39,359 nt of DNA from a virus (Duplodnaviria; Heunggongvirae; Uroviricota; Caudoviricetes). The stretch lies in IMG/VR virus record IMGVR_UViG_2563366943_000021. One strand, written 5' to 3'. The position numbers and the translations under genes are program-made. Position 1 is the stretch's first letter, and each line of letters starts with the position of its first letter. Of the stretch, positions 2,698 through 34,028 are shown piece by piece. The notes under the pieces are model-generated. The model worked only from the letters and a program-made list of their open reading frames with translations. It had not been told where the DNA came from and did no database searches.

Positions 2698-3088
2698 CGT
2701 CTTTTCTCCCCGGAATTAACTCGCGTGGATTATCGGAACGGTGATAGAGCCATATACCAATACGCACAGCGACAATTGCTGACACGAATGCGCCTGCAGA
2801 GAAAACAATCCCTTTTTCAAAAGAGTCCTGCGTGATGGTAGGGATCAGGCTGGCTATGCCGATAAGAATTGATGCTGCTGGTTTGTAAAAGAGAAGGCCG
2901 CAAAGAAAGCTGAGCATCGACAGGAGCACCCGGCGACGGATGGGGTACTCTACTGCAGAGGTAACAAAAATTACCGCCCCAGCCAAAGCCCCTAAAGCAA
3001 CCTCCGGAGGGACACCTGCAATAACTGCAGCAAGAGAACCAAAACTAAGCAACTGATTTAATTGCTCACTTGTTACTTGAGCAGACAT
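2684..3088 (-). CDS. Holin
   Basis: 134 aa with several hydrophobic helices and charged C-terminus; first gene of lysis cassette; RBS AGGAG. Confidence 0.6.
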   Translation of the reverse strand: MSAQVTSEQLNQLLSFGSLAAVIAGVPPEVALGALAGAVIFVTSAVEYPIRRRVLLSMLSFLCGLLFYKPAASILIGIASLIPTITQDSFEKGIVFSAGAFVSAIVAVRIGIWLYHRSDNPRELIPGRKDDGNA

Positions 3089-3368
3089 ACTTTCTCCTGT
3101 TTACTATCTATAAGCCAGTCAATTATTGATGACTAAACCCGCATAGTAAACCATATATGAATCATTATTGTTCCATATCATATATCTCAATAAAAGTACT
3201 AATGATTTTACAGAACGAGCCAGCAGAGTGGGGGCAGTTGTACAGGAACCATAGACTTAATTTTGTATTTAATAATGCTATGGTGTAATAAACCTGAACA
3301 TGTATTTAAAATACGTACTGATTCATGATAGAATTCAAAGATAACTTTTCACCAACTCCGTTTTTGAT

Positions 3369-3396
3369 ACCCGCAATATTTTGCGGGCTTTTTTTT
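3369..3396 (+). terminator. Plus-strand rho-independent terminator overlapping the tailspike stop codon
   Basis: Stem CCCGCAA / TTGCGGG, loop TATT, followed by 8 T on the plus strand; on the minus strand the hairpin is followed by A-rich sequence. Confidence 0.4.
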
Positions 3397-6300
3397 AACG
3401 TTCTTCCAGAGACTGAACCCGCTCTTTTATCTTATCCATTTCTCTGCGCTGCCATGCTGCCTCGATATAGAATAAGAGATCAGGTCTGACCCCCCATCTA
3501 GATCCTGCTGGCGTTATTTCAACGCGCTCAATGATGTCTTCTATTACCATCACTGGATTATCATCCTCATCAACAATGATGCTCCCGTCATTATCAGTCA
3601 GCGGCATTTCCCTTTGGCCAGTAATGACGTCATCATATACTGCGGGATAATCGTCATAGCAAAGAAAGGCATAGCGGCATGTTGTGCTTTCTTCTTCCAT
3701 GAGTCCGTGAGAAATAAGAACATCACGAAGTTGCTGCGCGATTACACCATGATGTATCCTCGCCCCTTCTTCCCCCTTTATAGCGACAGCGTTCAGCCAT
3801 TTATAAGCGATATACCTGACGTCACCCCAGGCATCCAGCAATGCTTCGTCAGGAGAGACCGGCTCTGTCTTTAATGTTCCGTCACTGGTAACCACAGGAT
3901 TGGAGCCAAGATAAACTGTCGAGAACCTGTTTCCCGGACCACCAAGAGCATTTACATTATCAAGATAAGGTTTAACATCTCCGTTCTCAAAAAGATGTTC
4001 GAGTGCGTTATATACCGCGCGACGTGGAGTACTGCTTCCGGAACCATGCAACGTTATCATTGCACCATCTGCTGAAGACGTTGTTTCACCGCCGCTAACG
4101 ATTAATCTCTGAGCGGTAACATCATCAGACGGTACTTTCTTCGCAATAATGGCGTAATTACCCTCAAGTTTGACTTCCGCGCGAACTTGTCCTGATGTAC
4201 CTGCATGGACAGTCAGTGACTGGACGGCAACATCATCTGTGAAATCAACGGGTACAGGAACCGTCCTCACGCCTGACGTCGACATAAAAGTAGGAAGCGT
4301 TCTGTTAGGAGTGGCTCCGTAGACAAAATCCCTTGAAACAAATTCTTCCTGTTTAATTTTCACCCTGAAACAATACAAATCAGCCGGGTGACCATCGTGA
4401 ACATAAGGATATTTTCTGTTGTTATCCCCTATGCTCCATGGGTTTAGAAAGTCTTCCCCACCGAAAATGTAGTACAGCCAGTTGTCTTTGATACAAACTG
4501 AACCAACACCAACCGCAGAGTTAACTATTCCGCCCTGATAAATCTGATCAGTAACATTAACCCACTCTACATTATCCAGACTCCACTCATTGACGTTAAC
4601 TCTGGTCATAAATGTTCTTGGATAATTTCCTGCATAACGGTTATCAGGTTCTCCTCCTTCCCACTCACCAAATGCGCGCTCACTGCCAAAAATAATCAGC
4701 TCATCGCCAACTTTGGCAAAAGGAAGGTTTGAGTGATGAACATTATTTGGGAAGCGAAGAGAATTCCATGATGTACCTAAATCAGAGCTTCTGTGCAATG
4801 AACTACCGGGTTGAGTACTTAATGTCCCCCTGGTCGTCAGATACAGAATGCCATCATAATATTTTACACATGGCTCAGATGCATTCGCCTCATATTCTAC
4901 AGGTATGCGTCTGCGAACAAAGCTACCAGGAGAACCGAAAGCATCAGAGAAATAGAGTATCCCAAGCTCGCGTGGACCAATATCACCATTATGGTAGCCA
5001 ACAGCAAAACTGTTATCGCTAATCGTCGCAAAACTGTGAATCTCAGTAACAGGAGTGCTTCCGTCAACAAAAGAAGGAATAGTTCCAAGACTGGTTTTTC
5101 TCCATGGTGACGAGTGAAATGATGTGCCAAAACTCCAGTATCTACCCTCGTTATTCTGATCCACATCCTGGGTATTTTGCGTCGTAACTGTAAAGGTATT
5201 TTTATCAATAACAGTAGTCACCGTCATATTCCCGGTAACACCTGTAACACCAGAGTTTGAGAAGTTGACAAAATCACCAGCAAATAATCCGTGATCAGTA
5301 ATGCGAATATAAGCGACTTGCTGATTTGCTGCTTTCGTTATACCACCATAAACGCGAAGGCTGCGACTCATTGGGCGATCCCACAACTCTGCAACCTGCA
5401 GTTTATTTCCTCTCACGGTCCGCGTCTCAATTACAGCAAAAAGGCGATTTCTGACAACCCCCATACTCATGCAGTGATAGTTAACTGTGGGATAGTTTTC
5501 ATGTAAATCTGTAAGCCATTCCGGCGTTGTCCAGGTCTTCCCGTCATCTCCTGAGCGAACCCATGCAACATGGAGGTTATTTACACCATGGCGGTCTCCA
5601 GCCATAAAAGGCGCATAGATGACATTGTCATATACAAACGTTTTATCCTGCGTCCAGGCGTTGTACCACGGTGTATCTGTAATTTTAAATAACTCTCCCT
5701 GGATAAAATCTTCAGAAGCATAAAAAAGAGGCTGGCCCGGTATTCTCTCAAATAAAAAACGAGCATTTTTAAATCGACTGACATCCGGAAGAGTTGATAC
5801 TTTAAAAGTAAGCCCTAATCCGTCAATTTTATAACCTGGAGATGAGGCTTCAAGGCACGCGCTTATTGCAGTGGAATCGTCATTTATACCATCACCAACA
5901 GCTCCAAAATCTTTGGGGCTAATAGCATCACGCATTTTATCCTGGAACGTTCGGTACACAGCCCCAGAACCATACTGAATAAACCAACCAAAACCACCAA
6001 CAACTCCGGCGATTGCAGCATCGACATAATTACGCATTGAGCGATTATTTACAGCGTCCTGCTCAAATGATGGATCTGCAAGGTTAGAAATTTTGTTTTG
6101 CTTTGCATCGTAATATTTTGCAAGCAAAGATGGTTTCATCAATGCACGTCTGAACCACCCAAAACATTGCTGGATCAGCATCGTCAGGTAGTCAAAGGCA
6201 TCTTCATGCACTTCGGGGAAAAATTTTCCCTGATTGCGAAGGTCTGTGTCCTGCACTACATCAAGCACACGATCTATCGTAATTCGCCATCCAGTAGCAA

Positions 6301-6514
6301 GCGGAGACGGAAGAACCACAGAACCGCCACTATAAGTGCCCGCCCCAGTTACCGTATAACCGGTATCCAGGACCAATTCTGTTACGTTCCCGTTCAGGTC
6401 AGACACCTGAACAACCAGGTCTGATTTTCTGAAAATTCGAAAAGTATACGGAAACGATGTCGTAACGCCGTTACCGGTGTATTCGTTGTGGTCAACTTCG
6501 GTTGAGACCGTCAT
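3395..6514 (-). CDS. Tailspike: N-terminal particle-binding domain, Asp-box sialidase-like beta-propeller, C-terminal intramolecular chaperone domain
   Basis: 1039 aa; two Asp-boxes SGDDGKTW (5531-5554) and SSDLGTSW (4766-4789); C-terminal about 150 aa resembles the auto-cleaving chaperone domain of endosialidases; N-terminus resembles epsilon15-type tailspike anchors (recalled). Confidence 0.8.
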   Translation of the reverse strand: MTVSTEVDHNEYTGNGVTTSFPYTFRIFRKSDLVVQVSDLNGNVTELVLDTGYTVTGAGTYSGGSVVLPSPLATGWRITIDRVLDVVQDTDLRNQGKFFPEVHEDAFDYLTMLIQQCFGWFRRALMKPSLLAKYYDAKQNKISNLADPSFEQDAVNNRSMRNYVDAAIAGVVGGFGWFIQYGSGAVYRTFQDKMRDAISPKDFGAVGDGINDDSTAISACLEASSPGYKIDGLGLTFKVSTLPDVSRFKNARFLFERIPGQPLFYASEDFIQGELFKITDTPWYNAWTQDKTFVYDNVIYAPFMAGDRHGVNNLHVAWVRSGDDGKTWTTPEWLTDLHENYPTVNYHCMSMGVVRNRLFAVIETRTVRGNKLQVAELWDRPMSRSLRVYGGITKAANQQVAYIRITDHGLFAGDFVNFSNSGVTGVTGNMTVTTVIDKNTFTVTTQNTQDVDQNNEGRYWSFGTSFHSSPWRKTSLGTIPSFVDGSTPVTEIHSFATISDNSFAVGYHNGDIGPRELGILYFSDAFGSPGSFVRRRIPVEYEANASEPCVKYYDGILYLTTRGTLSTQPGSSLHRSSDLGTSWNSLRFPNNVHHSNLPFAKVGDELIIFGSERAFGEWEGGEPDNRYAGNYPRTFMTRVNVNEWSLDNVEWVNVTDQIYQGGIVNSAVGVGSVCIKDNWLYYIFGGEDFLNPWSIGDNNRKYPYVHDGHPADLYCFRVKIKQEEFVSRDFVYGATPNRTLPTFMSTSGVRTVPVPVDFTDDVAVQSLTVHAGTSGQVRAEVKLEGNYAIIAKKVPSDDVTAQRLIVSGGETTSSADGAMITLHGSGSSTPRRAVYNALEHLFENGDVKPYLDNVNALGGPGNRFSTVYLGSNPVVTSDGTLKTEPVSPDEALLDAWGDVRYIAYKWLNAVAIKGEEGARIHHGVIAQQLRDVLISHGLMEEESTTCRYAFLCYDDYPAVYDDVITGQREMPLTDNDGSIIVDEDDNPVMVIEDIIERVEITPAGSRWGVRPDLLFYIEAAWQRREMDKIKERVQSLEER

Positions 6515-6618
6515 GTTAAATCTCCAGATAGTCGCAGCACCCGTTGCGCCGCATATCTGGTTATTCTATTACCTGAAAAACCATATATGGATAAAAAGAC
6601 TATAAATACCAATAGATA

Positions 6619-6633
6619 TTACCTTTCGGGTAA
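6619..6633. promoter_or_regulatory. Operator site TTACC-TTTCG-GGTAA
   Basis: Perfect 5+5 inverted repeat with 5-bp spacer; intergenic, upstream of LexA box and small antirepressor-domain gene. Confidence 0.6.
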
Positions 6634-6670
6634 TTTGCAAAACGTGCTGGATAGCAAACAAATTATTTGT

Positions 6671-6690
6671 TACTGTATAAACATACAGTT
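6671..6690 (+). promoter_or_regulatory. LexA (SOS) box
   Basis: TACTGTATAAACATACAGTT matches CTGT-N8-ACAG with AT-rich spacer; 20 bp upstream of ORF start at 6710. Confidence 0.65.
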
Positions 6691-6709
6691 ATTGCATGGA
6701 GAAGATAAG

Positions 6710-6967
6710 ATGCAGCAGTATCACTATCCACTGGAAGACGGATTTACCGAAAGGATTCACACGCCGGGAGGCGTCAGGTCACTGGTGGAGGGATCGCACT
6801 TGATGAAATTACTCCGGGATCTCGATAAGGATGGATTTAATGTCGATGGCCCACTTGCCGAACTGACTGCACTGATTAACTACGTCACCAGCTCACAGAT
6901 GTCTATGCAGGATCTGCAAACACATCTCGACTATTGTGCCGAACAATTACGAAAACAAACCAGATAA
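6710..6967 (+). CDS. Small protein paralogous to the C-terminal domain of the antirepressor; candidate SOS-induced antirepressor
   Basis: 85 aa from ATG at 6710 with RBS GGAGAAG; aligns with C-terminus of the 7283-7993 product (HTPGGV/HSPSGV ... AELT); upstream part of the tracked ORF overlaps the operator and LexA box. Confidence 0.55.
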   Translation: MQQYHYPLEDGFTERIHTPGGVRSLVEGSHLMKLLRDLDKDGFNVDGPLAELTALINYVTSSQMSMQDLQTHLDYCAEQLRKQTR

Positions 6968-6970
6968 GGT

Positions 6971-6999
6971 TTGCAATTACCAAATGGAGTGCTTATATT
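6971..6999 (+). promoter_or_regulatory. Sigma70-like promoter (-35 TTGCAA, 17 bp, -10 TATATT) abutting operator
   Basis: Hexamers read directly; the TTACC half-site starts at the last base of the -10. Confidence 0.5.
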
Positions 7000-7013
7000 T
7001 ACCTTTGCGGTAA
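6999..7013. promoter_or_regulatory. Operator site TTACC-TTTGC-GGTAA
   Basis: Perfect inverted repeat; overlaps predicted transcription start of the ant leader. Confidence 0.6.
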
Positions 7014-7103
7014 ATTTACATCGCACTCCTCTTGTGCCATAGTAATCGGGCACTGGCAAAATCCAGTGCCGGGATTGGCGTCCCGAGTTACTAAGTGGCG
7101 CAT

Positions 7104-7127
7104 ACCACGCCAGACGTGGTTTTTTTA
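7104..7127 (+). terminator. Rho-independent terminator or attenuator in the ant leader
   Basis: Stem ACCACG / CGTGGT, loop CCAGA, followed by 7 T; about 100 nt downstream of the promoter and 155 nt upstream of ant. Confidence 0.45.
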
Positions 7128-7282
7128 TGCGTTAAGCACAGCTATATCCGAATTATGGTGGGCTGGGCAGGGGTCCGAAAGGACGCCGGTACCACTTAGG
7201 CCGGTACGCCAACCTTGTCCAGTTCACCACCAGTAATTGGCGTTGCGGTGGTGATTAAAATCACTAAGTGGAGATAACCACC

Positions 7283-7993
7283 ATGGCTAATGCTCAAACT
7301 GCCATCTTCAAATTTGAATCTGTAAACCCTATCCGTTCCATCATTATCGATGGCCAACCATGGTTTGTAGCCCAAGACGTTTGTAGTGCGCTGCGTATCC
7401 AAAACGTCACCCAAGCACTTGAAAAACTGGATGATGATGAAAGGTCTATGTTCAACATAGGGCATGAACATCGTGCAATTTTTGACAGCCGAGTAAAAGA
7501 GATCAACATCATCTCCGAGTCAGGCCTCTACACACTGATCCTCCGCTGCCGCGACGCAGTGACACCAGGCACTATCCCCTACCGCTTTCGTAAATGGGTT
7601 ACAGGTGAGGTTCTTCCTCAGATCCGCCGCACCGGAAGCTACATTAAAAACTCGCTCCCGCAGGAAGAACGCATAAAGATGGTTGCCGACCAGGTAGCCA
7701 ACGCCACGGCGTCAGCAGTAATGCAGGCGATGAAGATAGAGAACAAAACCTACAGCGCCCCACTGAAGCCCGGCTACCGCAGCCTGATTCACTCGCCGTC
7801 TGGTGTTCTCGGCCTGACGGAGAACTCACTGCTGATGAATTTGCTGAACCAGTTGCAGGAAGACGGGCACGATGTATCGGGCGCGGCGGCGGAGCTGACC
7901 ACCATGTTCTGCTACATCGTTGGTGTGAGCAAATGCCTGCGTGATATCCAGACGCACGCGGAGTACATCAACGACAAGGCAGGATTCTTCTGA
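7283..7993 (+). CDS. Antirepressor (Bro-N / AntA-like N-terminal domain)
   Basis: N-terminal IFKFE...DGQPWFVAQDVCSAL matches Bro-N/AntA signature; start set at ATG 7283 with RBS GGAG (tracked start is GTG 7268). Confidence 0.7.
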   Translation: MANAQTAIFKFESVNPIRSIIIDGQPWFVAQDVCSALRIQNVTQALEKLDDDERSMFNIGHEHRAIFDSRVKEINIISESGLYTLILRCRDAVTPGTIPYRFRKWVTGEVLPQIRRTGSYIKNSLPQEERIKMVADQVANATASAVMQAMKIENKTYSAPLKPGYRSLIHSPSGVLGLTENSLLMNLLNQLQEDGHDVSGAAAELTTMFCYIVGVSKCLRDIQTHAEYINDKAGFF

Positions 7994-8038
7994 CAGAACG
8001 GCGGCACAGGGATGTGCCTTTAAATAATTCTGTACAGA

Positions 8039-8067
8039 TTGCAGACTGGGGGTGAATAGCGTACTAT
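8039..8067 (+). promoter_or_regulatory. Sigma70-like promoter (-35 TTGCAG, 17 bp, -10 TACTAT) abutting operator
   Basis: Same geometry as promoter at 6971-6999. Confidence 0.5.
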
Positions 8068-8081
8068 TACCTTAAAGGTAA
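8067..8081. promoter_or_regulatory. Operator site TTACC-TTAAA-GGTAA
   Basis: Perfect inverted repeat immediately upstream of RBS AGGAGG. Confidence 0.6.
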
Positions 8082-8093
8082 AGGAGGCGCGAT

Positions 8094-8261
8094 ATGACAG
8101 CGTTGAAAAATCGTACTCAGCACAATGAACAAGCCAAGCAATGCTGGGATGTCATTGGAAAAGTTATGCTTGGCCGCGCAAGCAAAGAGCGCGACAAGGA
8201 TATGGTTTACCAGACAGGAACATCTTTCAGCGACTTCAAGGCGGCATTTCGCTCCAAATAG
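8094..8261 (+). CDS. Hypothetical small protein (55 aa), first gene of a two-gene cassette
   Basis: Absent from ORF track (below 60 aa); strong RBS AGGAGG 6 nt before ATG; GC-normal; operator-controlled promoter upstream. Confidence 0.45.
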   Translation: MTALKNRTQHNEQAKQCWDVIGKVMLGRASKERDKDMVYQTGTSFSDFKAAFRSK

Positions 8262-8281
8262 AAGCACATCAGGAGTTTTCC

Positions 8282-8722
8282 TTGAAGTTTAACATTAGAA
8301 TATCTAATAGTTTTCTACATGGGGAAAGCAACACCCCTTTCGCTGTAGACGGACCTTTCCTTACTGATGATGAAATAAAAATCATACAAAGTTTTTTAGA
8401 GGATGTTGCCAATGGAAGGGCGCTTGTTGGAAAAAACAAGCCCTCGTGGGTTGATGATAACCATGATAAAATTCCCGGCTCAGACAATTATGAGCAAGAG
8501 AATTATTGGCATTATCATTGTGGGCCAACATGGTATCCAAACACATTTAAGAATTATACCATTAACTTAAATTTCAACCCTGGCGGAAGGCATTCTAATG
8601 AATGCATTCATTATGCAAAAAATGATAATGAAATTGTCATTGTTGGATTTTCAAGAGAACACATACCTTTCCTTTCATCAGATGGAAACAACAATCCGCT
8701 TTTTAATGATGAAGAAGAATAG
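8282..8722 (+). CDS. Hypothetical AT-rich protein (about 146 aa), second gene of cassette
   Basis: AT-rich relative to neighbours; putative TTG start with RBS AGGAG 6 nt upstream, in frame with tracked ORF 8141-8722; no family recognised. Confidence 0.45.
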   Translation: MKFNIRISNSFLHGESNTPFAVDGPFLTDDEIKIIQSFLEDVANGRALVGKNKPSWVDDNHDKIPGSDNYEQENYWHYHCGPTWYPNTFKNYTINLNFNPGGRHSNECIHYAKNDNEIVIVGFSREHIPFLSSDGNNNPLFNDEEE

Positions 8723-8743
8723 CCCGCGCTGCGGGCTTTTTTG
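8721..8743 (+). terminator. Rho-independent terminator after the cassette
   Basis: Stem AGCCCGC / GCGGGCT, loop GCT, then 6 T. Confidence 0.6.
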
Positions 8744-8814
8744 TGGACGAAACAAAAGTCAGTGCTACACTCATTGACGCCACATTGAGGTGGCTTATAG
8801 ATGGAAATTTCACA

Positions 8815-8976
8815 ATGAAAAAAGCATTTGCTGCACTGTTCGTTTTGTTGTCTCTGGTAGCTTCAACTCAGGCCTTTGCCGGTCGTTGTCAGCACGACAG
8901 CGACACTGCTGCTGACGGCTCCCGCTGCGGTGGGTGTTCTGCGGATTCCCGCCCGGGTGGCGGTGGCATTCGTTAA
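8815..8976 (+). CDS. Putative small secreted Cys-containing peptide (53 aa precursor)
   Basis: Internal ATG of tracked ORF gives MKKAFAALFVLLSLVASTQAFA signal peptide then 31 residues with 4 Cys and Gly-rich tail; weak RBS. Confidence 0.3.
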   Translation: MKKAFAALFVLLSLVASTQAFAGRCQHDSDTAADGSRCGGCSADSRPGGGGIR

Positions 8977-8998
8977 AAACAAGGCCGCGAAAGCGGCC
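8973..8998 (-). terminator. Rho-independent terminator for the minus-strand lipoprotein gene
   Basis: Stem GGCCGC / GCGGCC, loop GAAA; T-run on minus strand; directly downstream of lipoprotein stop. Confidence 0.55.
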
Positions 8999-8999
8999 T

Positions 9000-9011
9000 G
9001 TGACATGTCAC
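9000..9011. repeat. 12-bp perfect palindrome GTGACATGTCAC (copy 1 of 3)
   Basis: Identical 12-mer also at 26720-26731 and 28984-28995; all at gene ends. Confidence 0.7.
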
Positions 9012-9388
9012 GCAACGCAATTATTACCGCGCCATGTAACATTTTTAATAATCTTATCAGCACCAAACTCAACGTAAACAGAGCAACTGAAATGGAGTGT
9101 ATAACCGCCATCAGTTGTTGCGTATGTGTTTGAATATATAGTATTACCAATTAGATTAGACGTAGTATTATACGTTGTGGTTTGTGGTACGTTATAACTA
9201 CCAGAGCTTGAGTAAACATACACTCTGTTTCCATCTGGAGATGTAAGCTCTCCCTGAGGATACCCCCACTGCTGAACCATTGCGTCTATACTCTGCCCGC
9301 GCCACGTAAGCATATTTCTTTCAAACTGTGCAGCTGACTGGCATCCAACGAGAAGCATAAATCCAAAAATCAAAAATACTTTTCTCAT
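9008..9388 (-). CDS. Lipoprotein (126 aa), prophage moron
   Basis: Start moved to internal ATG (MRKVFLIFGFMLLVGC) giving signal peptide plus lipobox LVGC; low GC; own terminator. Confidence 0.55.
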   Translation of the reverse strand: MRKVFLIFGFMLLVGCQSAAQFERNMLTWRGQSIDAMVQQWGYPQGELTSPDGNRVYVYSSSGSYNVPQTTTYNTTSNLIGNTIYSNTYATTDGGYTLHFSCSVYVEFGADKIIKNVTWRGNNCVA

Positions 9389-9607
9389 AATTACCCCTAT
9401 CATGGAAAAACAGCACCAATCCACAAATTAACTAGTTATTTTATTATTCTTCCGAACAATACAATTCCGAATACTACAAAGCCGAACCATGCCGCTGCAC
9501 GCAACAGAGATTCCAATTGAAACCCATTTTTATCAAAATGTATGAATAGCATAAAAACGCTGCACATATTAGTACAATAAAAGTTATTTGAACCATCATA
9601 TCTCCTT

Positions 9608-12082
9608 TTATTGCGGAGTGACATCCTGTGGTCGCCACCAGTATGTCTGGTTAAACTCTTTCTTCGAACGTTGCTCCATTTTACGCAAATAGCCTGGTGA
9701 AAAATACTCCTGCATCTGGTTAAAGATCATGTGATCGAGAGCCGCCTTCAAGTACCAGAGATTCGCACCAGGCATCAAACCTTTCCCCAGCTTCACCAGA
9801 TCACCACCAGTCTGCTCACTCTTCCCTTCCACAGCATTTAACGGTATGCCCTGAGCAATCTTCACTACGTCATCAACCAGACCAGCTACCGGGCCAAGCA
9901 TCGACGCCAGCGCGCCGCTTCCGTACCTAGTGTGATCTGACAATAAAAAGTCACCGTAAAGGCCAAGACCACCACCTTTCAGTAGAGCACCAAGCCAGAA
10001 TTTTGCGGCATCTTCTCCTGTCATCTCTCGAGGATTACGACCAGACGCAAGGTCGTTAAGTTGCTGCGACAAAGCGCCAAGAATGGTCGTACTGGCAATA
10101 AACGTCGCAATATATGCCGCACGCCCACCAGCAGACGGCATACCCATAGCGCGTGACCAGTGACGCATAACAACCGAGATAGGGAACGATTTAAACAGGA
10201 AAACACTTCTCGTTAATTCACCTTTCCATGTTCCACGCTGAATACCAGAACCGGTTATCAGTTGCTCACGTGCTCCCGGTGTAATAACAGCCATATCAAC
10301 TTCTTCAGTTACGGCACCGAGCAGTTTACGCATTGCCTCAAATTTCACGCGTTCAGGCTCACCAAGATGTTTAACTGCTGAATCAGGGATACGCATAATG
10401 CTTTCCGGTGTCAGCATCGTATTATTACCGTTCCCCCAGTCCTCCTGTTTCGCCAGCTTCCATACGCTCCAGTCTGTGTCAGTAATCCCTTTGCTTTTCA
10501 GGATACGAAAATCAGAGTCATCGAGGCTACGAAGGTCTGGTGTCCGTGACACTACTTCTCCCAGGCTTCCCATCATGGTTACGCCATAGGCGCGCTTGTG
10601 CGCATCTGACCATGCTGTAAGCCCACTGGCACGCATTACCGCCGTTGCCGCCCAACGAGACACTGACGGCCCCATATTATCCATCGCCCAGCGGTTAACG
10701 CTGCCAAGTAGAGATTCCATCGCCAGACCAGCGCGGCGCGCCCGCGCAAGTTCTGTACGGTTCGTTGGGTCCATAGCTTCAAGCTGGTTGCGGAATAACT
10801 GGTTCATTGGAAGGTTGGTAACCTTCGCAGACAGATACATGGTTCCAAGATCAGAGAACGATGACAGCAACGCGGATCCGAGTCTGCTGGCAACCAGCCA
10901 GTTGCGGATATTGTCAGACCATCGCGCGATGTGCGGATTCGCTACAGGCTGTGTCTTTCCGGAAATAAAGTTGTACAGATTCTCTGTGTTGTTCGCCAGC
11001 CGCTCGACTTTACCGGTTTTACTCGGGTTAGCTGTTGCCGTTTCTGCCTTCACCTGATCAAGAAGAGAGCGGAAAACATGATCGGGGTTTGGGCCATATG
11101 TTTCCACCAGTGCAATATCTTTACTGATACCTTCCAGGTGACCGACCATGATTTCCCATAGAGAGCGATCGCCATAAAGTTGCTGATATTGCAGATAGGA
11201 ATCTGCATCTTTGAAATGTATCTGTCGTGATGCATTACCACGGTTAGCACGTGCGCCGGAAATTCGCATTCCGGTATCAGTAAGCTTATTCAGCCCACCA
11301 GTAGCGATCGTGTTATAAGCCTCTCCAAGAAATGAAGACAACTCGGCATCGTTCATCAGTTGTCCATCGGCTCGGATATAATATTTGCGATCCAGCTTAC
11401 CTATAACATCGCTAACCCACTTATCCTTTGATACTGCCCCAACCTTTTCCATAGAATGATGTTGAGGGATCCCCCAGTTTTCGAGATAGCCAATGTCCCC
11501 ACCAGCATCATTAAACCGGCGGCGCAGCAGCTCTGTAACTTCTCTCCACGCCTTAGCACCGTTTCTTGCTTTAGCATTGCCAGTATTTTGCCCCCGCATT
11601 TCATATACCAGGTCACGTACGCCCGCTTCATCTTCAAACAGACCAAAAAAGCGAGGATCAACTGCTTCGAATGCCTCCTGCAATTGACTCAATGCATAAT
11701 CACGGGTGGCTTTTGTTCTGGATTCAACAGAGAGGAAATTAGATTTACCGTCTGCATTAAAAGCTATAGTACGGTTAAGAGCGCCAAGTTTCCCATCAGC
11801 CCCTTGATAGCTATTGATAAATTTATCCAATCTCTGACGCGCGGCTATAGTGAGAGCCACACGACGTTTCTTTAATGCCGCTTCTCGCTGTAATTCTTCA
11901 GATGCCAATTGTGCTGCTCGATATAGCCGCTCTGATTCGGAAAGTTGTCGCCACGACATAGGGTCATCACGAGCAATGGAGCGCATATTTCGATAAATGC
12001 GGTCTTCAATGTTCTGTATTTCTCGCGCCGTTAACATGCGCTGCGCCGCCTGCTGAACCGCTTGTATACATTCCTGTCTCAT
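9608..12082 (-). CDS. Internal virion / DNA-ejection protein (824 aa)
   Basis: Large protein in the podovirus structural block between tail tubular genes and tailspike; C-terminal hydrophobic segments; by position analogous to T7 internal core proteins. Confidence 0.6.
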   Translation of the reverse strand: MRQECIQAVQQAAQRMLTAREIQNIEDRIYRNMRSIARDDPMSWRQLSESERLYRAAQLASEELQREAALKKRRVALTIAARQRLDKFINSYQGADGKLGALNRTIAFNADGKSNFLSVESRTKATRDYALSQLQEAFEAVDPRFFGLFEDEAGVRDLVYEMRGQNTGNAKARNGAKAWREVTELLRRRFNDAGGDIGYLENWGIPQHHSMEKVGAVSKDKWVSDVIGKLDRKYYIRADGQLMNDAELSSFLGEAYNTIATGGLNKLTDTGMRISGARANRGNASRQIHFKDADSYLQYQQLYGDRSLWEIMVGHLEGISKDIALVETYGPNPDHVFRSLLDQVKAETATANPSKTGKVERLANNTENLYNFISGKTQPVANPHIARWSDNIRNWLVASRLGSALLSSFSDLGTMYLSAKVTNLPMNQLFRNQLEAMDPTNRTELARARRAGLAMESLLGSVNRWAMDNMGPSVSRWAATAVMRASGLTAWSDAHKRAYGVTMMGSLGEVVSRTPDLRSLDDSDFRILKSKGITDTDWSVWKLAKQEDWGNGNNTMLTPESIMRIPDSAVKHLGEPERVKFEAMRKLLGAVTEEVDMAVITPGAREQLITGSGIQRGTWKGELTRSVFLFKSFPISVVMRHWSRAMGMPSAGGRAAYIATFIASTTILGALSQQLNDLASGRNPREMTGEDAAKFWLGALLKGGGLGLYGDFLLSDHTRYGSGALASMLGPVAGLVDDVVKIAQGIPLNAVEGKSEQTGGDLVKLGKGLMPGANLWYLKAALDHMIFNQMQEYFSPGYLRKMEQRSKKEFNQTYWWRPQDVTPQ

Positions 12083-19887: not shown

Positions 19888-20495
19888 CAGGACAACCTCG
19901 CAATGGTAAACTCGTCAACCGGTGGCTGTGGTTCCTGTGATTCATTCTGGCTATGCGAGCCAGCACTAAGAATCACGCGATTGTACATATTGAGGGCAAA
20001 CGTACCGAGGTCTGCATTCCCAGTCAGCGCCATGTTAATAGCTGCCGCAAGACGCCAGGCCAGCGCCTCCATAAAAATGGCATCAAACATGTTCACATCT
20101 GTAACGCGAGAGACATACTTGAGCCATGCCTGAGGCTGGTCTGTGTAGATCAACTTTCCTGTTCCGTTGGTGTCTGCACCAACTTCGTACTGAACGCGCA
20201 TTGCTGCTGTTGGATTGCGTACACCAGGAAGCATAATTTCAGTAATGCGCAGACAATCTGACGGGTACTGGTACGCATATTCCCAGTCAGGCGGTGGATT
20301 GCTCGTATCTGCAAGCGCCACGCGTTTGGTAGCAAAGTTCCAGTCAAAATCAGAAAGCACAGCATCACGGCAGGCCTCAAAGTGCAGCGAACATTCCCCC
20401 GCTTCCTTGCTGGCTTCCGTCAGGCTGTTAATGCTGCGGCTGTTGCCAATATTGGACAGCGCACGATTACAGATCTCTACTACAGAGGACATCAC
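19887..20495 (-). CDS. Tail tubular protein A-like (adaptor), T7 gp11-like
   Basis: 202 aa; position between head genes and tubular B; weak recalled similarity. Confidence 0.5.
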   Translation of the reverse strand: MMSSVVEICNRALSNIGNSRSINSLTEASKEAGECSLHFEACRDAVLSDFDWNFATKRVALADTSNPPPDWEYAYQYPSDCLRITEIMLPGVRNPTAAMRVQYEVGADTNGTGKLIYTDQPQAWLKYVSRVTDVNMFDAIFMEALAWRLAAAINMALTGNADLGTFALNMYNRVILSAGSHSQNESQEPQPPVDEFTIARLS

Positions 20496-23696: not shown

Positions 23697-25372
23697 TGTG
23701 ATTGCCCACCCTGACCACTAACTGCATTCGCCATAGCTGACAAAACACTCGGATCCGAAGTTTTAGCTTCGCTTAGCGTCTTGGCACCCTGTGCCGCCGC
23801 CATCCCCATCGCCATCATTTGTTGCTGCTGTTGTTGCTGTGCCCGTTGCTGGCGAGCCTGCTCAACCTGTTCCTGCGGAACAATGACGGTTGGAGACACT
23901 CCGGACATATCAGCGAATGCATCGATCGCCTGATCAACGTTGAGTTTGTCGAGAGCTTCTGGTTTCGCTTGCGCAAGTTGACCAATGAAGTTAACCGTGG
24001 ACGCCAGACTGGACAGGCCGATAGACTTCTGCGCCTGAGCCATGACGGAAATGTATTCGACCTTCAGGGGCATACCTTCCATCACGTCTGGCGGTGGCGG
24101 CAGCATGTTTTTACGCACCATCATCGAGAAAGCGCGGTCAATGAGAGGATTAAGACATTCGTCGTTCAGACGCTCCAGAACCGGCCCCAACATCAGAAGT
24201 TTTTCTTCTTTCATTTCGATCACCGCTTCAACAGGCATCGAGCGGGTATTGATGTTCTGCAACATCATGAACAGATCGACAAAGTAGGCGCTGTTAATGA
24301 TTTGACGGGTGTCCTGAATGTCTGCCACCAAATCTGCTGTACTGGGGTTAACCAGATAAGCAGGCCTGAAACCATCCTGACCAGTAATCTGATCGATATA
24401 CGTGATGTCGCCAGGAAGAAGGGAGGCACGCTGATTCTTGAGGGAAGTCGGAGCAACCATCGGCGGATTGGTGGCTTTATCAATCAACTGCGACTTGCGC
24501 TTCTGGAGAAGCTGCAATGCCTTAACAGGTCCAAGCGCCAGCATACCCGGGCATGATGATCCATAAACATCTTCGCCGTTAACTTCCCAGCGCGGAGCCA
24601 TAATTGGAAACTCATCGAATCCGGACTCACGCAACAACTTGTCGTTATCGCCACCAACCTCGTAATAAACCGATTTGAATGGCTTGTTCTTGCTATCCAG
24701 CTTCGATGTATCGCGGTCAATGTTCGGGTAAACCGAATGCATCACTTCAATCCACTTCTCGTAGGTGCCGCTTTCCCACATGCTTTTTACGGATTCGCTG
24801 ACGTTATTTAGCCCGAACTCCTGAACAAGCTGACGAACAGTCATAGAGAACTTGCGAAAACAGGTGTCCACACTGCCACGAGGTGAGTTAGCCAGGTAGT
24901 AACTGCCTATCGGGAATGGCATTGTGCGAATGATGTCCTCGTCATCCTCCAGCACCGCCATTGCACCAGTGCTGTATGTGCCGAGGCTTCCGTATAACTG
25001 CGGAAGAGACTGGTAGAGATTCGACTTATTGAACATATCGTTCATGCGGTTCTGCACCGCCTCAAGCCACAACTTAACAGGGCCATAATCCATCATTTCA
25101 GGATCTGGCGTAGCCAGGCGAAACCACGGACGCGCGGGGCTTGTGATGCCTGACATCATGCCGCTGGCGAGAGTGCGCGCCGCCATAGTCCCGGTCGAAT
25201 CAATAATGCGTGTATTGCGTCGATCGTTACGGTTGACCTCAGAAGTCAGAAAGCGGGAACCACGCGGGTTGATGTAATCACTCAACTCGCGCCAGTGCGG
25301 CTCGAACGACTGACGCTCGCTTTCAAGTTGTGCGAACTGTTTGTTCAATCGCTCTTTAGTTGTTTCCGCCAT
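23693..25372 (-). CDS. Portal (head-to-tail connector) protein, T7 gp8-like
   Basis: 559 aa; Gln-rich C-terminus QQQQQQMMAMGMAAAQGA resembles T7 connector C-terminus (recalled); RBS GGAG; follows terminase region. Confidence 0.8.
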   Translation of the reverse strand: MAETTKERLNKQFAQLESERQSFEPHWRELSDYINPRGSRFLTSEVNRNDRRNTRIIDSTGTMAARTLASGMMSGITSPARPWFRLATPDPEMMDYGPVKLWLEAVQNRMNDMFNKSNLYQSLPQLYGSLGTYSTGAMAVLEDDEDIIRTMPFPIGSYYLANSPRGSVDTCFRKFSMTVRQLVQEFGLNNVSESVKSMWESGTYEKWIEVMHSVYPNIDRDTSKLDSKNKPFKSVYYEVGGDNDKLLRESGFDEFPIMAPRWEVNGEDVYGSSCPGMLALGPVKALQLLQKRKSQLIDKATNPPMVAPTSLKNQRASLLPGDITYIDQITGQDGFRPAYLVNPSTADLVADIQDTRQIINSAYFVDLFMMLQNINTRSMPVEAVIEMKEEKLLMLGPVLERLNDECLNPLIDRAFSMMVRKNMLPPPPDVMEGMPLKVEYISVMAQAQKSIGLSSLASTVNFIGQLAQAKPEALDKLNVDQAIDAFADMSGVSPTVIVPQEQVEQARQQRAQQQQQQQMMAMGMAAAQGAKTLSEAKTSDPSVLSAMANAVSGQGGQSQ

Positions 25373-25593: not shown

Positions 25594-25683
25594 ATCAATG
25601 ACTCCGTACGCAATTAAATTATTACCAATTTAACCACATATGATTTATTTATCGTAGGTAGTTGACATTTAACGCACAAATTA

Positions 25684-25698
25684 TTACCTTTCAGGTAA
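25684..25698. promoter_or_regulatory. Operator site TTACC-TTTCA-GGTAA, with TTGACA hexamer 17 bp upstream
   Basis: Perfect inverted repeat at the upstream edge of the plus-strand tRNA moron. Confidence 0.55.
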
Positions 25699-26020: not shown

Positions 26021-26097
26021 GTGGCATTAGCTCAGCTGGACAGAGCAACCGCCTTCTAAGCGGTTGGTCGCAGGTTCGAATCCTGCATGCCACGCCA
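26021..26097 (+). tRNA. tRNA-Arg (anticodon UCU)
   Basis: Hand-folded cloverleaf: 7-bp acceptor stem GTGGCAT/ATGCCAC, D-arm GCTC..GAGC, anticodon stem ACCGC/GCGGT with loop CTTCTAA (anticodon TCT), T-arm GCAGGTTCGAATCCTGC, discriminator G, encoded CCA. Confidence 0.8.
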
Positions 26098-31002: not shown

Positions 31003-31030
31003 TTAAAAACCACATAAGACACTAAATCAA
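31002..31030 (-). promoter_or_regulatory. Minus-strand promoter (-35 TTGATT, 17 bp, -10 TTTAAT) abutting operator
   Basis: Read on the reverse complement; same geometry as plus-strand promoters. Confidence 0.45.
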
Positions 31031-33443: not shown

Positions 33444-34028
33444 ATGAAAAGTATCCAGGACGTCCGCAGGCAAAATCTCAACGACTTGATCGACCGTGAA
33501 TTCAATGGTGTTCAGACGCGGATGGCAGAAAAACTTGGAACTCAGGCAAATCTGGTAAACCGCTGGGCTCTTGGCAAGAAGGTTATCGGCGACCAGGTTG
33601 CACGAAAAATTGAAGCTGCCGCCAATAAACCCCGTAACTGGCTTGATATCGATCGCTCGCTTTCTCAGGAAGGTTTTCAGCCTGTCGGCCCAAGCGACAT
33701 TGGTCAGCTGGCGGCTCACAACCTGGAACGCTGGATGAGCGAAAGCCGCGACCTTTCAACGCAGGGAAAACTTCACCGCGCATCCGGCGTCGCCCAGGTG
33801 ACAATCAGTCGCCTGTTAAACAATGAGGTCAGCGTTTCCATTTCCACCCTGGAGAATGTTGCATCCGCATTCGGGCGTCACGGCTATGAATTACTGATTC
33901 ACCCGCACGACCCTGCGACCATCAACTATGACCGCTCGCGCTACGCATTGTTACCCGAAACCGAGAAAGCAAAGATCGAAAGTTACATTGAATTTGTCAT
34001 CAACCAGAACGAAAAAAACAAACAATAA
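33444..34028 (+). CDS. Prophage repressor candidate with two HTH domains and no S24 peptidase domain
   Basis: 194 aa; HTH-like segments (AEKLGTQANLVNRWALG and ASGVAQVTISRLLNNE); no Ser-Lys autocleavage motif; divergent from cro-like gene; own terminator. Confidence 0.6.
   Translation: MKSIQDVRRQNLNDLIDREFNGVQTRMAEKLGTQANLVNRWALGKKVIGDQVARKIEAAANKPRNWLDIDRSLSQEGFQPVGPSDIGQLAAHNLERWMSESRDLSTQGKLHRASGVAQVTISRLLNNEVSVSISTLENVASAFGRHGYELLIHPHDPATINYDRSRYALLPETEKAKIESYIEFVINQNEKNKQ

Follow-up and report, generated by a model that had tools for sequence, protein, structure and literature searches.

A probable immI-like induction-control region with two cargo sites in a K1-specific Uetakevirus prophage

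The DNA analysed here, referred to as the window, is the whole of IMG/VR virus record IMGVR_UViG_2563366943_000021 (39,359 nucleotides (nt)), an epsilon15/phiV10-like (Uetakevirus) prophage specific for E. coli K1, and the element in question is its segment 6515-9607 (3.09 kb), situated between the gene of an 824-residue internal virion protein (9608-12082, minus strand) and the tailspike gene (3395-6514, minus strand). This segment is probably the immI-like induction-control region of the prophage and has two sites at which cargo varies. The backbone represents the ancestral control module of the phage genus, in which SPC32H-type antirepression is combined with P1-type RNA control, and is as such a region of a known kind. 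A preliminary description of the window had placed the segment correctly between these flanks and had noted an uneven GC content, which indeed ranges from 0.35 to 0.57, and had read the segment as an accessory island inserted into the late operon, mostly on the opposite strand. The island reading was not sustained for the segment as a whole: each relative examined had ant with its operator together with an envelope-protein gene and its terminator, even where the locus is minimal (epsilon15, PAS61), and this backbone is therefore not an insertion. The strand assignment was correct for the antirepressor genes, the two-gene cassette and the peptide gene, all on the plus strand, and incorrect for the lipoprotein gene, which lies with the late genes of the window on the minus strand. 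The LexA box, the three repressor operators and the isrK and C4 RNAs had been missed.

Assignment of the prophage and comparison with relatives

DNA of the segment area matched Uetakevirus phages (HEMP4, phiv142-3, ZX5, TL-2011b and phiV10), with the epsilon15-like Salmonella phages more distant. The 1039-residue open reading frame (ORF) at 3395-6514 carries all the Pfam endosialidase domains and encodes an endosialidase tailspike, and the upstream ORFs of 824 and 600 residues are orthologues of the virion proteins phiV10 gp20/gp19 and epsilon15 gp17/gp16. Assignment to a P22-like (CUS-3) prophage with a classical immI was considered and rejected, as the matches go to phiV10, ZX5, phiv142-3 and epsilon15. 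Comparison of this position across related prophages for variable cargo, which had been proposed as a check in the preliminary description, found that its content differs: part of the segment is held by ~565 of 5426 complete E. coli genomes (~10%), and at least 80% of it by only 15 of these 565.

Repressor, candidate operators and the first antirepressor

The features of this part of the segment, together with the operator that precedes the first cargo site (slot A), are as follows.

6619-6633, no strand assigned: candidate operator TTACCTTTCGGGTAA, between the divergent ant and tailspike genes, kept in most relatives
6673-6688, no strand assigned: predicted LexA (SOS) box CTGTATAAACATACAG, 22 nt upstream of the ant ATG, of the form CTGT-N8-ACAG with an AT-rich spacer
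6710-6967, plus strand: ant, an 85-residue antirepressor, orthologue of SPC32H Ant and epsilon15 gp19
6999-7013, no strand assigned: candidate operator TTACCTTTGCGGTAA at the promoter of the isrK/C4/Bro-N unit, its position kept in relatives
8067-8081, plus strand: candidate operator TTACCTTAAAGGTAA, overlapping the -10 element of TTGCAG-17-TACTAT (promoter region 8040-8081) ahead of slot A

Promoter assignments, here and below, were made from a consensus scan and conserved motifs only, and none was confidently given to ant, the peptide or the lipoprotein.

The repressor Rep of the window (194 residues, 33444-34028) matched PDB 5D50 chain A over residues 1-190 (E = 4e-42), and Ant matched chain E of the same entry (SPC32H Ant) with near identity (~90%) over 83 residues (E = 4e-47), was assigned to phrog_450 and is 98-100% identical among the E. 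coli relatives. A longer ORF of 126 residues (6587-6967) was rejected as the antirepressor gene, the real start being ATG 6710 as in 5D50_E and in all annotated relatives. The Pfam domains of Rep are helix-turn-helix families only, with no LexA-like autocleavage (S24) domain, and Rep is therefore not inactivable by RecA-stimulated self-cleavage. The structure of the SPC32H Rep-Ant complex (PDB 5D50, 5D4Z) has reportedly been solved, in work said to be that of Kim & Ryu 2013 and Kim et al. 2016, and Ant is said to take Rep off the DNA.

A LexA-type box stands at the same place in the first seven phage relatives compared, three prophages of E. coli chromosomes, two of Salmonella and epsilon15, the last with an identical box. 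LexA-controlled antirepressors are the usual route of induction in Salmonella prophages, and SPC32H is cited as a case (review, PMC7380047).

With one mismatch allowed, the window has 13 copies of the palindrome TTACC-N5-GGTAA, against 0.63 expected, and they concentrate between the divergent rep and cro-like genes and ahead of early and late transcription units. The same sites (ATTACC-N5-GGTAAT) are labelled repressor binding sites in the epsilon15 RefSeq record, one of them between gp19 (ant) and the tailspike gene. All three operator positions of the segment are kept in the E. coli and Salmonella relatives, whichever gene comes after the third. The ten copies outside the segment were located at 25684, 28874/28892, 30988/31050, 32989, 33326/33374 and 34086/34148; they are often paired, 18-62 bp apart, and some precede the terminase and portal operons, so that the repressor seems to act directly on late units too.

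The second antirepressor and its RNAs

Downstream of ant lies a unit with two RNAs and a second antirepressor gene.

6971-7043, plus strand: isrK/C4/Bro-N promoter region, with TTGCAA-17-TATATT (6971-6999) and TTTACA-17-TGCATAGT (7015-7043), predicted start ~7050
7050-7126, plus strand: IsrK-type small RNA, with terminator at 7104-7126 and decoy boxes a1 (7075-7081) and b1 (7091-7098)
7151-7234, plus strand: C4 antisense RNA, with b' CCACTTAG at 7192-7199 (loop box) and a' ACGCCAA at 7206-7212
7237-7243 (a2) and 7264-7271 (b2), plus strand: target boxes, b2 overlapping the Shine-Dalgarno sequence (GGAG) of the Bro-N gene
7283-7993, plus strand: Bro-N antirepressor, 236 residues from ATG 7283, with a Bro-N domain and a C-terminal Ant-like domain

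The encoded protein matched Pfam Bro-N (1e-19) as well as phrog_130 and other anti-repressor PHROGs, and its residues 155-231 (77 residues) matched 5D50 chain E (E = 1.2e-13). Structure, Pfam and PHROG matches agree in this way with the preliminary description that two antirepressor-type genes are present, at 6710-6967 and 7283-7993 and both on the plus strand. Overexpression of the orthologue from the K1 phage ZX5, which is 81% identical to the protein of the window, lowered the lysogen count ~1000-fold (PMC9782041).

Both RNAs scored above the Rfam gathering thresholds, isrK (RF01394) with 67.2 bits (gathering score 50) and C4 (RF01695) with 66 bits (gathering score 45), and a c4-a1b1 match (RF03163, 7037-7089) reached 44.3 bits, slightly under its gathering score of 46.7. 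isrK and C4 are above their gathering scores in the window and in six of the seven relatives, missing only in PAS61, which is without the Bro-N gene. Pairing of C4 with its targets was scored by searches for exact complements, the output of RNAduplex being discarded as dominated by long artificial duplexes. By this measure a' and b' are exact complements (7 and 8 nt) of a1 and b1 within IsrK and of a2 and b2 in the 270-nt leader. Across seven phages, three variants of b' and two of a' occur in four combinations, and both sets of targets follow them, save for one mismatch in the b1 of one phage. In ZX5 the leader holds an annotated ORF of 37 residues that ends 5 nt before the Bro-N gene.

In TL-2011b (L002, 6562-7746) a block with a P22-type Arc-like repressor, Ant and sar RNA (Rfam RF00262, 44.8 bits) was seen in the same locus, so that as many as three antirepressor systems can be combined at this place in a single phage.

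Cargo slot A

The first of the two cargo sites, slot A, lies behind the third operator and holds the following two genes in the window.

8094-8261, plus strand: 55-residue partner gene, putative antitoxin (phrog_8607)
8282-8722, plus strand: 146-residue toxin-like gene of RelE/ParE-superfamily fold, starting at TTG 8282 behind AGGAG, with a terminator at 8721-8745

The two-gene cassette given in the preliminary description is accordingly present, with the start of its second gene corrected to TTG 8282. An ATG start at 8141 (193 residues) was rejected, since it would overlap the 55-residue gene by 120 nt and the homologues have ~147 residues; the partner gene stops 20 nt before the start adopted here. 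The family of the 146-residue protein has the conserved motifs GKNK.SW, WHYHCG and HY and an extra N-terminal region of ~50 residues. Assignment as a YafO toxin was rejected: the YafO gene of TL-2011b and SURV0398 is a different one, hhalign against the YafO-family protein of this slot gave a probability of 0.1%, and Pfam YafO_toxin (PF13957) misses the family of the window.

In a non-phage chromosomal locus of Erwinia a 58-residue homologue of the partner (40% identity, E = 2e-12) precedes a homologue of the 146-residue protein, and lambdoid prophages of Klebsiella have a related pair in their nin region, with a weak match for the small gene; on this distribution the two genes behave as a mobile module. 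Among the relatives it occupies slot A in HEMP4 and phiv142-3, as in the window. Elsewhere the slot is filled by a gene matching Pfam YafO_toxin (TL-2011b; weakly in SURV0398), by a DUF2335 membrane protein (SY033, Salmonella and Klebsiella BUCT711) or by a 210-residue protein without assigned function (CE10), and the operator stands ahead of it in the E. coli and Salmonella relatives possessing the slot, regardless of cargo. The position of the cassette behind a repressor operator argues against its expression in the lysogen.

Secreted peptide and cargo slot B

The remaining genes of the segment are a peptide gene beyond slot A and, facing it on the late strand, the contents of the second cargo site, slot B.

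8815-8976, plus strand: 53-residue secreted or membrane-anchored peptide (phrog_14503), downstream of the cassette terminator
8982-8999, minus strand: intrinsic terminator, a hairpin and T-run after the lipoprotein gene, without a T-run on the plus strand
9008-9388, minus strand: 126-residue outer-membrane-type lipoprotein, with Cys16, Gln at +2 and a BamE/OsmE/BLIP-like fold
9436-9624, minus strand: two overlapping hydrophobic ORFs in different frames, candidates, one of 62 residues from ATG 9624 and one of ~41 residues (9474-9599) behind AAGGAG

The peptide begins with MKK, followed by a hydrophobic core and AFA|G, with the cut predicted after AFA and a mature part of ~31 residues. Against the Klebsiella copies 30 of 44 differences fall at codon position 3 (22 codons synonymous, 11 non-synonymous), and across Escherichia, Shigella, Klebsiella, Cronobacter, Salmonella, Pectobacterium and Dickeya the mature part, C.HD.DTAADGSRC.G.S.DSRPGG, is nearly invariant while the signal peptide is variable. 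The secreted peptide suspected in the preliminary description is real, and its count of four Cys is not, the peptide having three in the window and two in relatives. The substitution R41C (codon 41, 8935-8937), at a nearly invariant Arg, is the sole difference from the common E. coli allele. The peptide is labelled a transmembrane anchored protein by NCBI and a moron by PHROGs.

The lipoprotein at 9008-9388 was found where it had been described, with the lipobox LLVG-C (MRKVFLIFGFMLLVG-C), the Cys of which is invariant in 18 homologues, as are two more Cys. By the established +2 rule, a Gln at +2 suggests sorting to the outer membrane. The protein has no sequence similarity to any annotated family and no sequence or fold relationship to T5 Llp or Cor. 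On their predicted export signals, the peptide and the lipoprotein are both genuine envelope-targeted proteins.

In Salmonella prophages the lipoprotein gene starts 10 nt past the 824-residue gene, and in a distant relative there is an overlap with the gene before it; no terminator was predicted on the late strand between 9608 and 9388. As the lipoprotein gene adjoins a virion gene on the same strand, its terminator is the end of the virion operon; the hairpin and T-run at 8999-8982 are as described previously, without belonging to the lipoprotein gene as its own. An annotated terminator is found at the equivalent place in epsilon15 and phiV10. By position, the lipoprotein gene is the last late gene and not an autonomous moron.

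In place of the lipoprotein, slot B holds a 46-residue two-helix protein (phiV10, PAS61), the 64-residue gp18 (epsilon15), a 98-residue multi-pass membrane protein (HEMP4, phiv142-3) or a 283-residue secreted protein (EC.W1-9), and its contents in the relatives examined are always membrane, secreted or lipoprotein. The two small hydrophobic ORFs sit where epsilon15 gp18 and phiV10 gp21 are; they are unannotated in RefSeq relatives, and the available copies are identical. A PADLOC run on seven proteins of the segment gave zero matches.

Transcription of the tailspike gene

How the tailspike gene downstream of the segment is transcribed had been considered unclear in the preliminary description. 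On paper this is now largely resolved by a conserved promoter-like motif.

6567-6590, minus strand: candidate tailspike promoter motif (C)CATATATGGTT-N5-GGTAATA(GAAT), ~50 nt upstream of the tailspike ATG (6514)

The 23-nt motif occurs only twice in the window (0.14 expected), before the tailspike gene and the portal operon, where it reads CATATnTGGTT-N5-GGTAATA. Four copies of its 12-nt core TCATATRTGGTT were counted against 0.35 expected, all on the minus strand (3149-3160, 6579-6590, 25632-25643 and 31008-31019), and these precede lysis, tailspike, portal and one early transcription unit. In epsilon15 the same motif precedes the portal and tailspike genes and, in a weaker form, the lysis genes, and in the alignment of E. 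coli and Salmonella relatives it is kept while its flanks diverge. The motif may serve this phage genus as a promoter element or activator site, and we infer from it that the tailspike gene may have a promoter of its own; with such an element, read-through across the segment would not be needed. In L011, copies of the motif were noted at 2988-3010, 19940-19962 and 24751-24773. The tailspike 5' leader (6520-6555, minus strand) contains a GC-rich hairpin-like stretch, GCGGCGCAACGGGTGCTGC, and in the Salmonella lineage a different GC-rich palindrome is found there.

Proposed mechanism

In the lysogen, Rep would occupy the TTACC-N5-GGTAA operators across the prophage, including the three in the segment, and host LexA would occupy the SOS box of ant. 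DNA damage would remove LexA, upon which the 85-residue Ant would be made, bind Rep and strip it from the DNA, opening the Rep-controlled promoters. One of these would drive the second, Bro-N/Ant-like antirepressor, the translation of which would be gated by C4, made from the gene's own leader and pairing through a' and b' with a2 and b2 over the ribosome-binding site. The upstream IsrK would present identical decoy boxes a1 and b1, and the co-variation of boxes between phages would confer specificity of the P1/P7 type. A third Rep-controlled promoter would drive the swappable slot A, here with a toxin-antitoxin-like module. On the late strand, the internal-virion operon would end in a swappable envelope-protein gene and a terminator, and the tailspike would be transcribed from its own promoter region beside the ant operator. 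The analysis shows the homologies, the sites with their conservation, the RNA families with their covariation, the protein folds and the variable cargo, and from these we infer the occupancy of Rep and LexA sites, the order of events, the toxicity of the cassette and any envelope function.

Several points weigh against this reading. The case for the present phage was built entirely by analysis at the sequence level. Operator identity was judged from counts, positions and the epsilon15 annotation, and the operator before ant sits upstream of the -35 element, as opposed to over the -10 element at the other promoters. An exact CTGT-N8-ACAG box before the ant orthologue was not found in the Klebsiella Uetakevirus loci (L015-L017), in which operators are present; SOS control in this lineage may be different or degenerate. 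The icd/orf45-type leader ORF is broken in the window by a TAG inside b', leaving a TTG ORF of at most 20 residues (7215-7277), so that translational coupling may not apply and the RNA mechanism may differ in detail. Regarding the cassette, the 146-residue protein gave no match to a named toxin family in Pfam, NCBIfam or PADLOC, and no recognisable DNA-binding domain was found in the 55-residue partner.

Comparison with known systems

The closest likeness is to the Rep-Ant system of SPC32H, an epsilon15-like phage, with which the window shares a near-identical Ant, a homologous Rep without an autocleavage domain, a LexA box before ant and the position of ant beside the tailspike gene. The window differs in its E. 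coli K1 host, its endosialidase tailspike, the added RNA-gated antirepressor and the cargo slots, and its system is predicted from the sequence. The loci of epsilon15 (gp18-gp19) and phiV10 (gp21-gp24) contain orthologues of the backbone (a small membrane protein with terminator, ant, operator and tailspike), phiV10 also having isrK, C4 and the Bro-N gene, but neither locus has the RelE-fold cassette, the secreted peptide or the lipoprotein.

The second antirepressor unit resembles the immI of P1/P7 (c4-icd-ant) and isrK-orf45-anrP of Gifsy-1 in the order of promoter, a1/b1 (IsrK, with a leaky terminator), C4 with a'/b', a2/b2 over the ribosome-binding site and antirepressor; the Gifsy-1 locus has the IsrK part of the arrangement (PMC4825925). 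Just as P1 and P7 do, the phages compared have different box sequences, with targets that co-vary. The unit of the window differs in its broken leader ORF, in having an operator for the main repressor at its promoter and in the fusion of Bro-N and SPC32H-Ant-like parts in its antirepressor. The order of the segment, in which internal-virion or ejection genes are followed by an envelope-protein gene, an antirepressor module that includes antisense RNA and the tailspike gene, is also that of P22 from gene 16 to gene 9 (sieA, then immI with mnt, arc, ant and sar RNA), on the established P22 map. The P22 proteins are, however, non-homologous, Mnt and Arc have no counterpart in the window and the lipoprotein is unrelated to SieA.

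The slot A cassette is similar to type II toxin-antitoxin modules of the RelE/ParE group (RelBE, YefM-YoeB, DinJ-YafQ, YafNO) in its fold, small upstream gene and mobility, and in the presence of YafO_toxin in the same slot of relatives, and is unlike them in having no named-family match, an N-terminal extra of ~50 residues and a phage-repressor operator in place of an evident antitoxin operator. With the exclusion lipoproteins T5 Llp and Cor the lipoprotein of the window shares the lipobox signal peptide, sequence and fold being unrelated.

Alternative explanations

The whole segment could instead be an acquired moron island interrupting the late operon, with a lipoprotein and a peptide made in the lysogen to keep out superinfecting phages or to mask a receptor. 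Such an origin would fit the cargo that varies between relatives, the uneven GC content, two envelope-targeted proteins that are real and under purifying selection, and a location corresponding to that of sieA in P22, with the ejection-protein genes on one side and immI on the other; expression in the lysogen could moreover come from a weak promoter-like sequence at 9624-9595, on the late strand. It is nevertheless unlikely, given a backbone (ant, operators, terminator and envelope gene) found in every relative and a lipoprotein which, with its BamE/BLIP-like fold, is similar to no annotated family and is encoded by the last gene of the late operon. ZX5, which has an identical lipoprotein, gave no lysogen phenotype in its assays, exclusion not being among them (PMC9782041). 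The envelope proteins of slot B could also be late lytic functions, either protecting the envelope of the progeny or infected cell as T5 Llp does or aiding ejection or lysis, and would then have no part in lysogenic conversion. This is a possibility that we take seriously while holding it somewhat short of probable: the gene is on the virion-operon strand at the operon end, before the terminator, at the 10-nt distance (Salmonella) or overlap (distant relative) noted above and with no predicted terminator between 9608 and 9388, and a BLIP/BamE-like fold is typical of periplasmic proteins that bind or inhibit others, yet slot content that varies from two-transmembrane and multi-transmembrane to secreted and lipoprotein would be odd for an essential virion or lysis function.

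As for slot A, the 55- and 146-residue genes might not constitute a toxin-antitoxin pair: the cassette could encode a nuclease for host shut-off coupled to induction, or could act against defences or competitors, in either case only after removal of Rep. A Rep-type operator overlapping the promoter, which should keep the cassette silent in the lysogen, the unrelated cargo (YafO, DUF2335 and the 210-residue protein) carried by the same promoter-operator, the lack of a PADLOC match and a partner without sign of an autoregulatory DNA-binding domain all point in this direction; we are doubtful of it all the same, because the pair travels together (the Erwinia non-phage locus and the lambdoid nin region) as autonomous toxin-antitoxin modules do, and type II modules classically combine a RelE fold with a small partner encoded upstream. 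A more ambitious proposal appears unlikely. In it the three operator-gated promoters would form one cascade with two inputs, SOS through LexA and Ant and RNA specificity through C4 and IsrK on the second antirepressor, which shares the Rep-binding domain. The cascade would end in a toxin slot with interchangeable cargo (RelE-fold, YafO or DUF2335), fired only on derepression of the prophage in order to shut off the host or to attack co-resident phages, and the nearly invariant 30-residue secreted peptide and the variable envelope protein of slot B would make up an undescribed envelope or exclusion system of epsilon15-like phages.

Read as an immI-like induction-control region with two cargo hot spots, what had seemed a junk island is the induction switch of a type of prophage present in about a tenth of complete E. 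coli genomes, including K1 meningitis strains such as CE10. SOS-dependent induction by way of an antirepressor is a testable hypothesis obtained from the sequence, and the phage-specific C4 and IsrK boxes should set cross-induction and heteroimmunity among co-resident prophages. New cargo would enter at slot A, under repressor gating, and at slot B, where the virion operon ends, and new biology could come only from the families of the peptide, the lipoprotein and the RelE-fold protein.

Additional observations

In some relatives a third insertion point was seen between ant and the isrK promoter, occupied by one or two late-strand genes (L009, 1591-2319; L006, 2092-3007), and in L009, the one case checked, an extra copy of the operator lies alongside. 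A tRNA-Arg gene (anticodon tct) is located within the prophage at 26021-26097 (plus strand), on the strand opposite the late genes.

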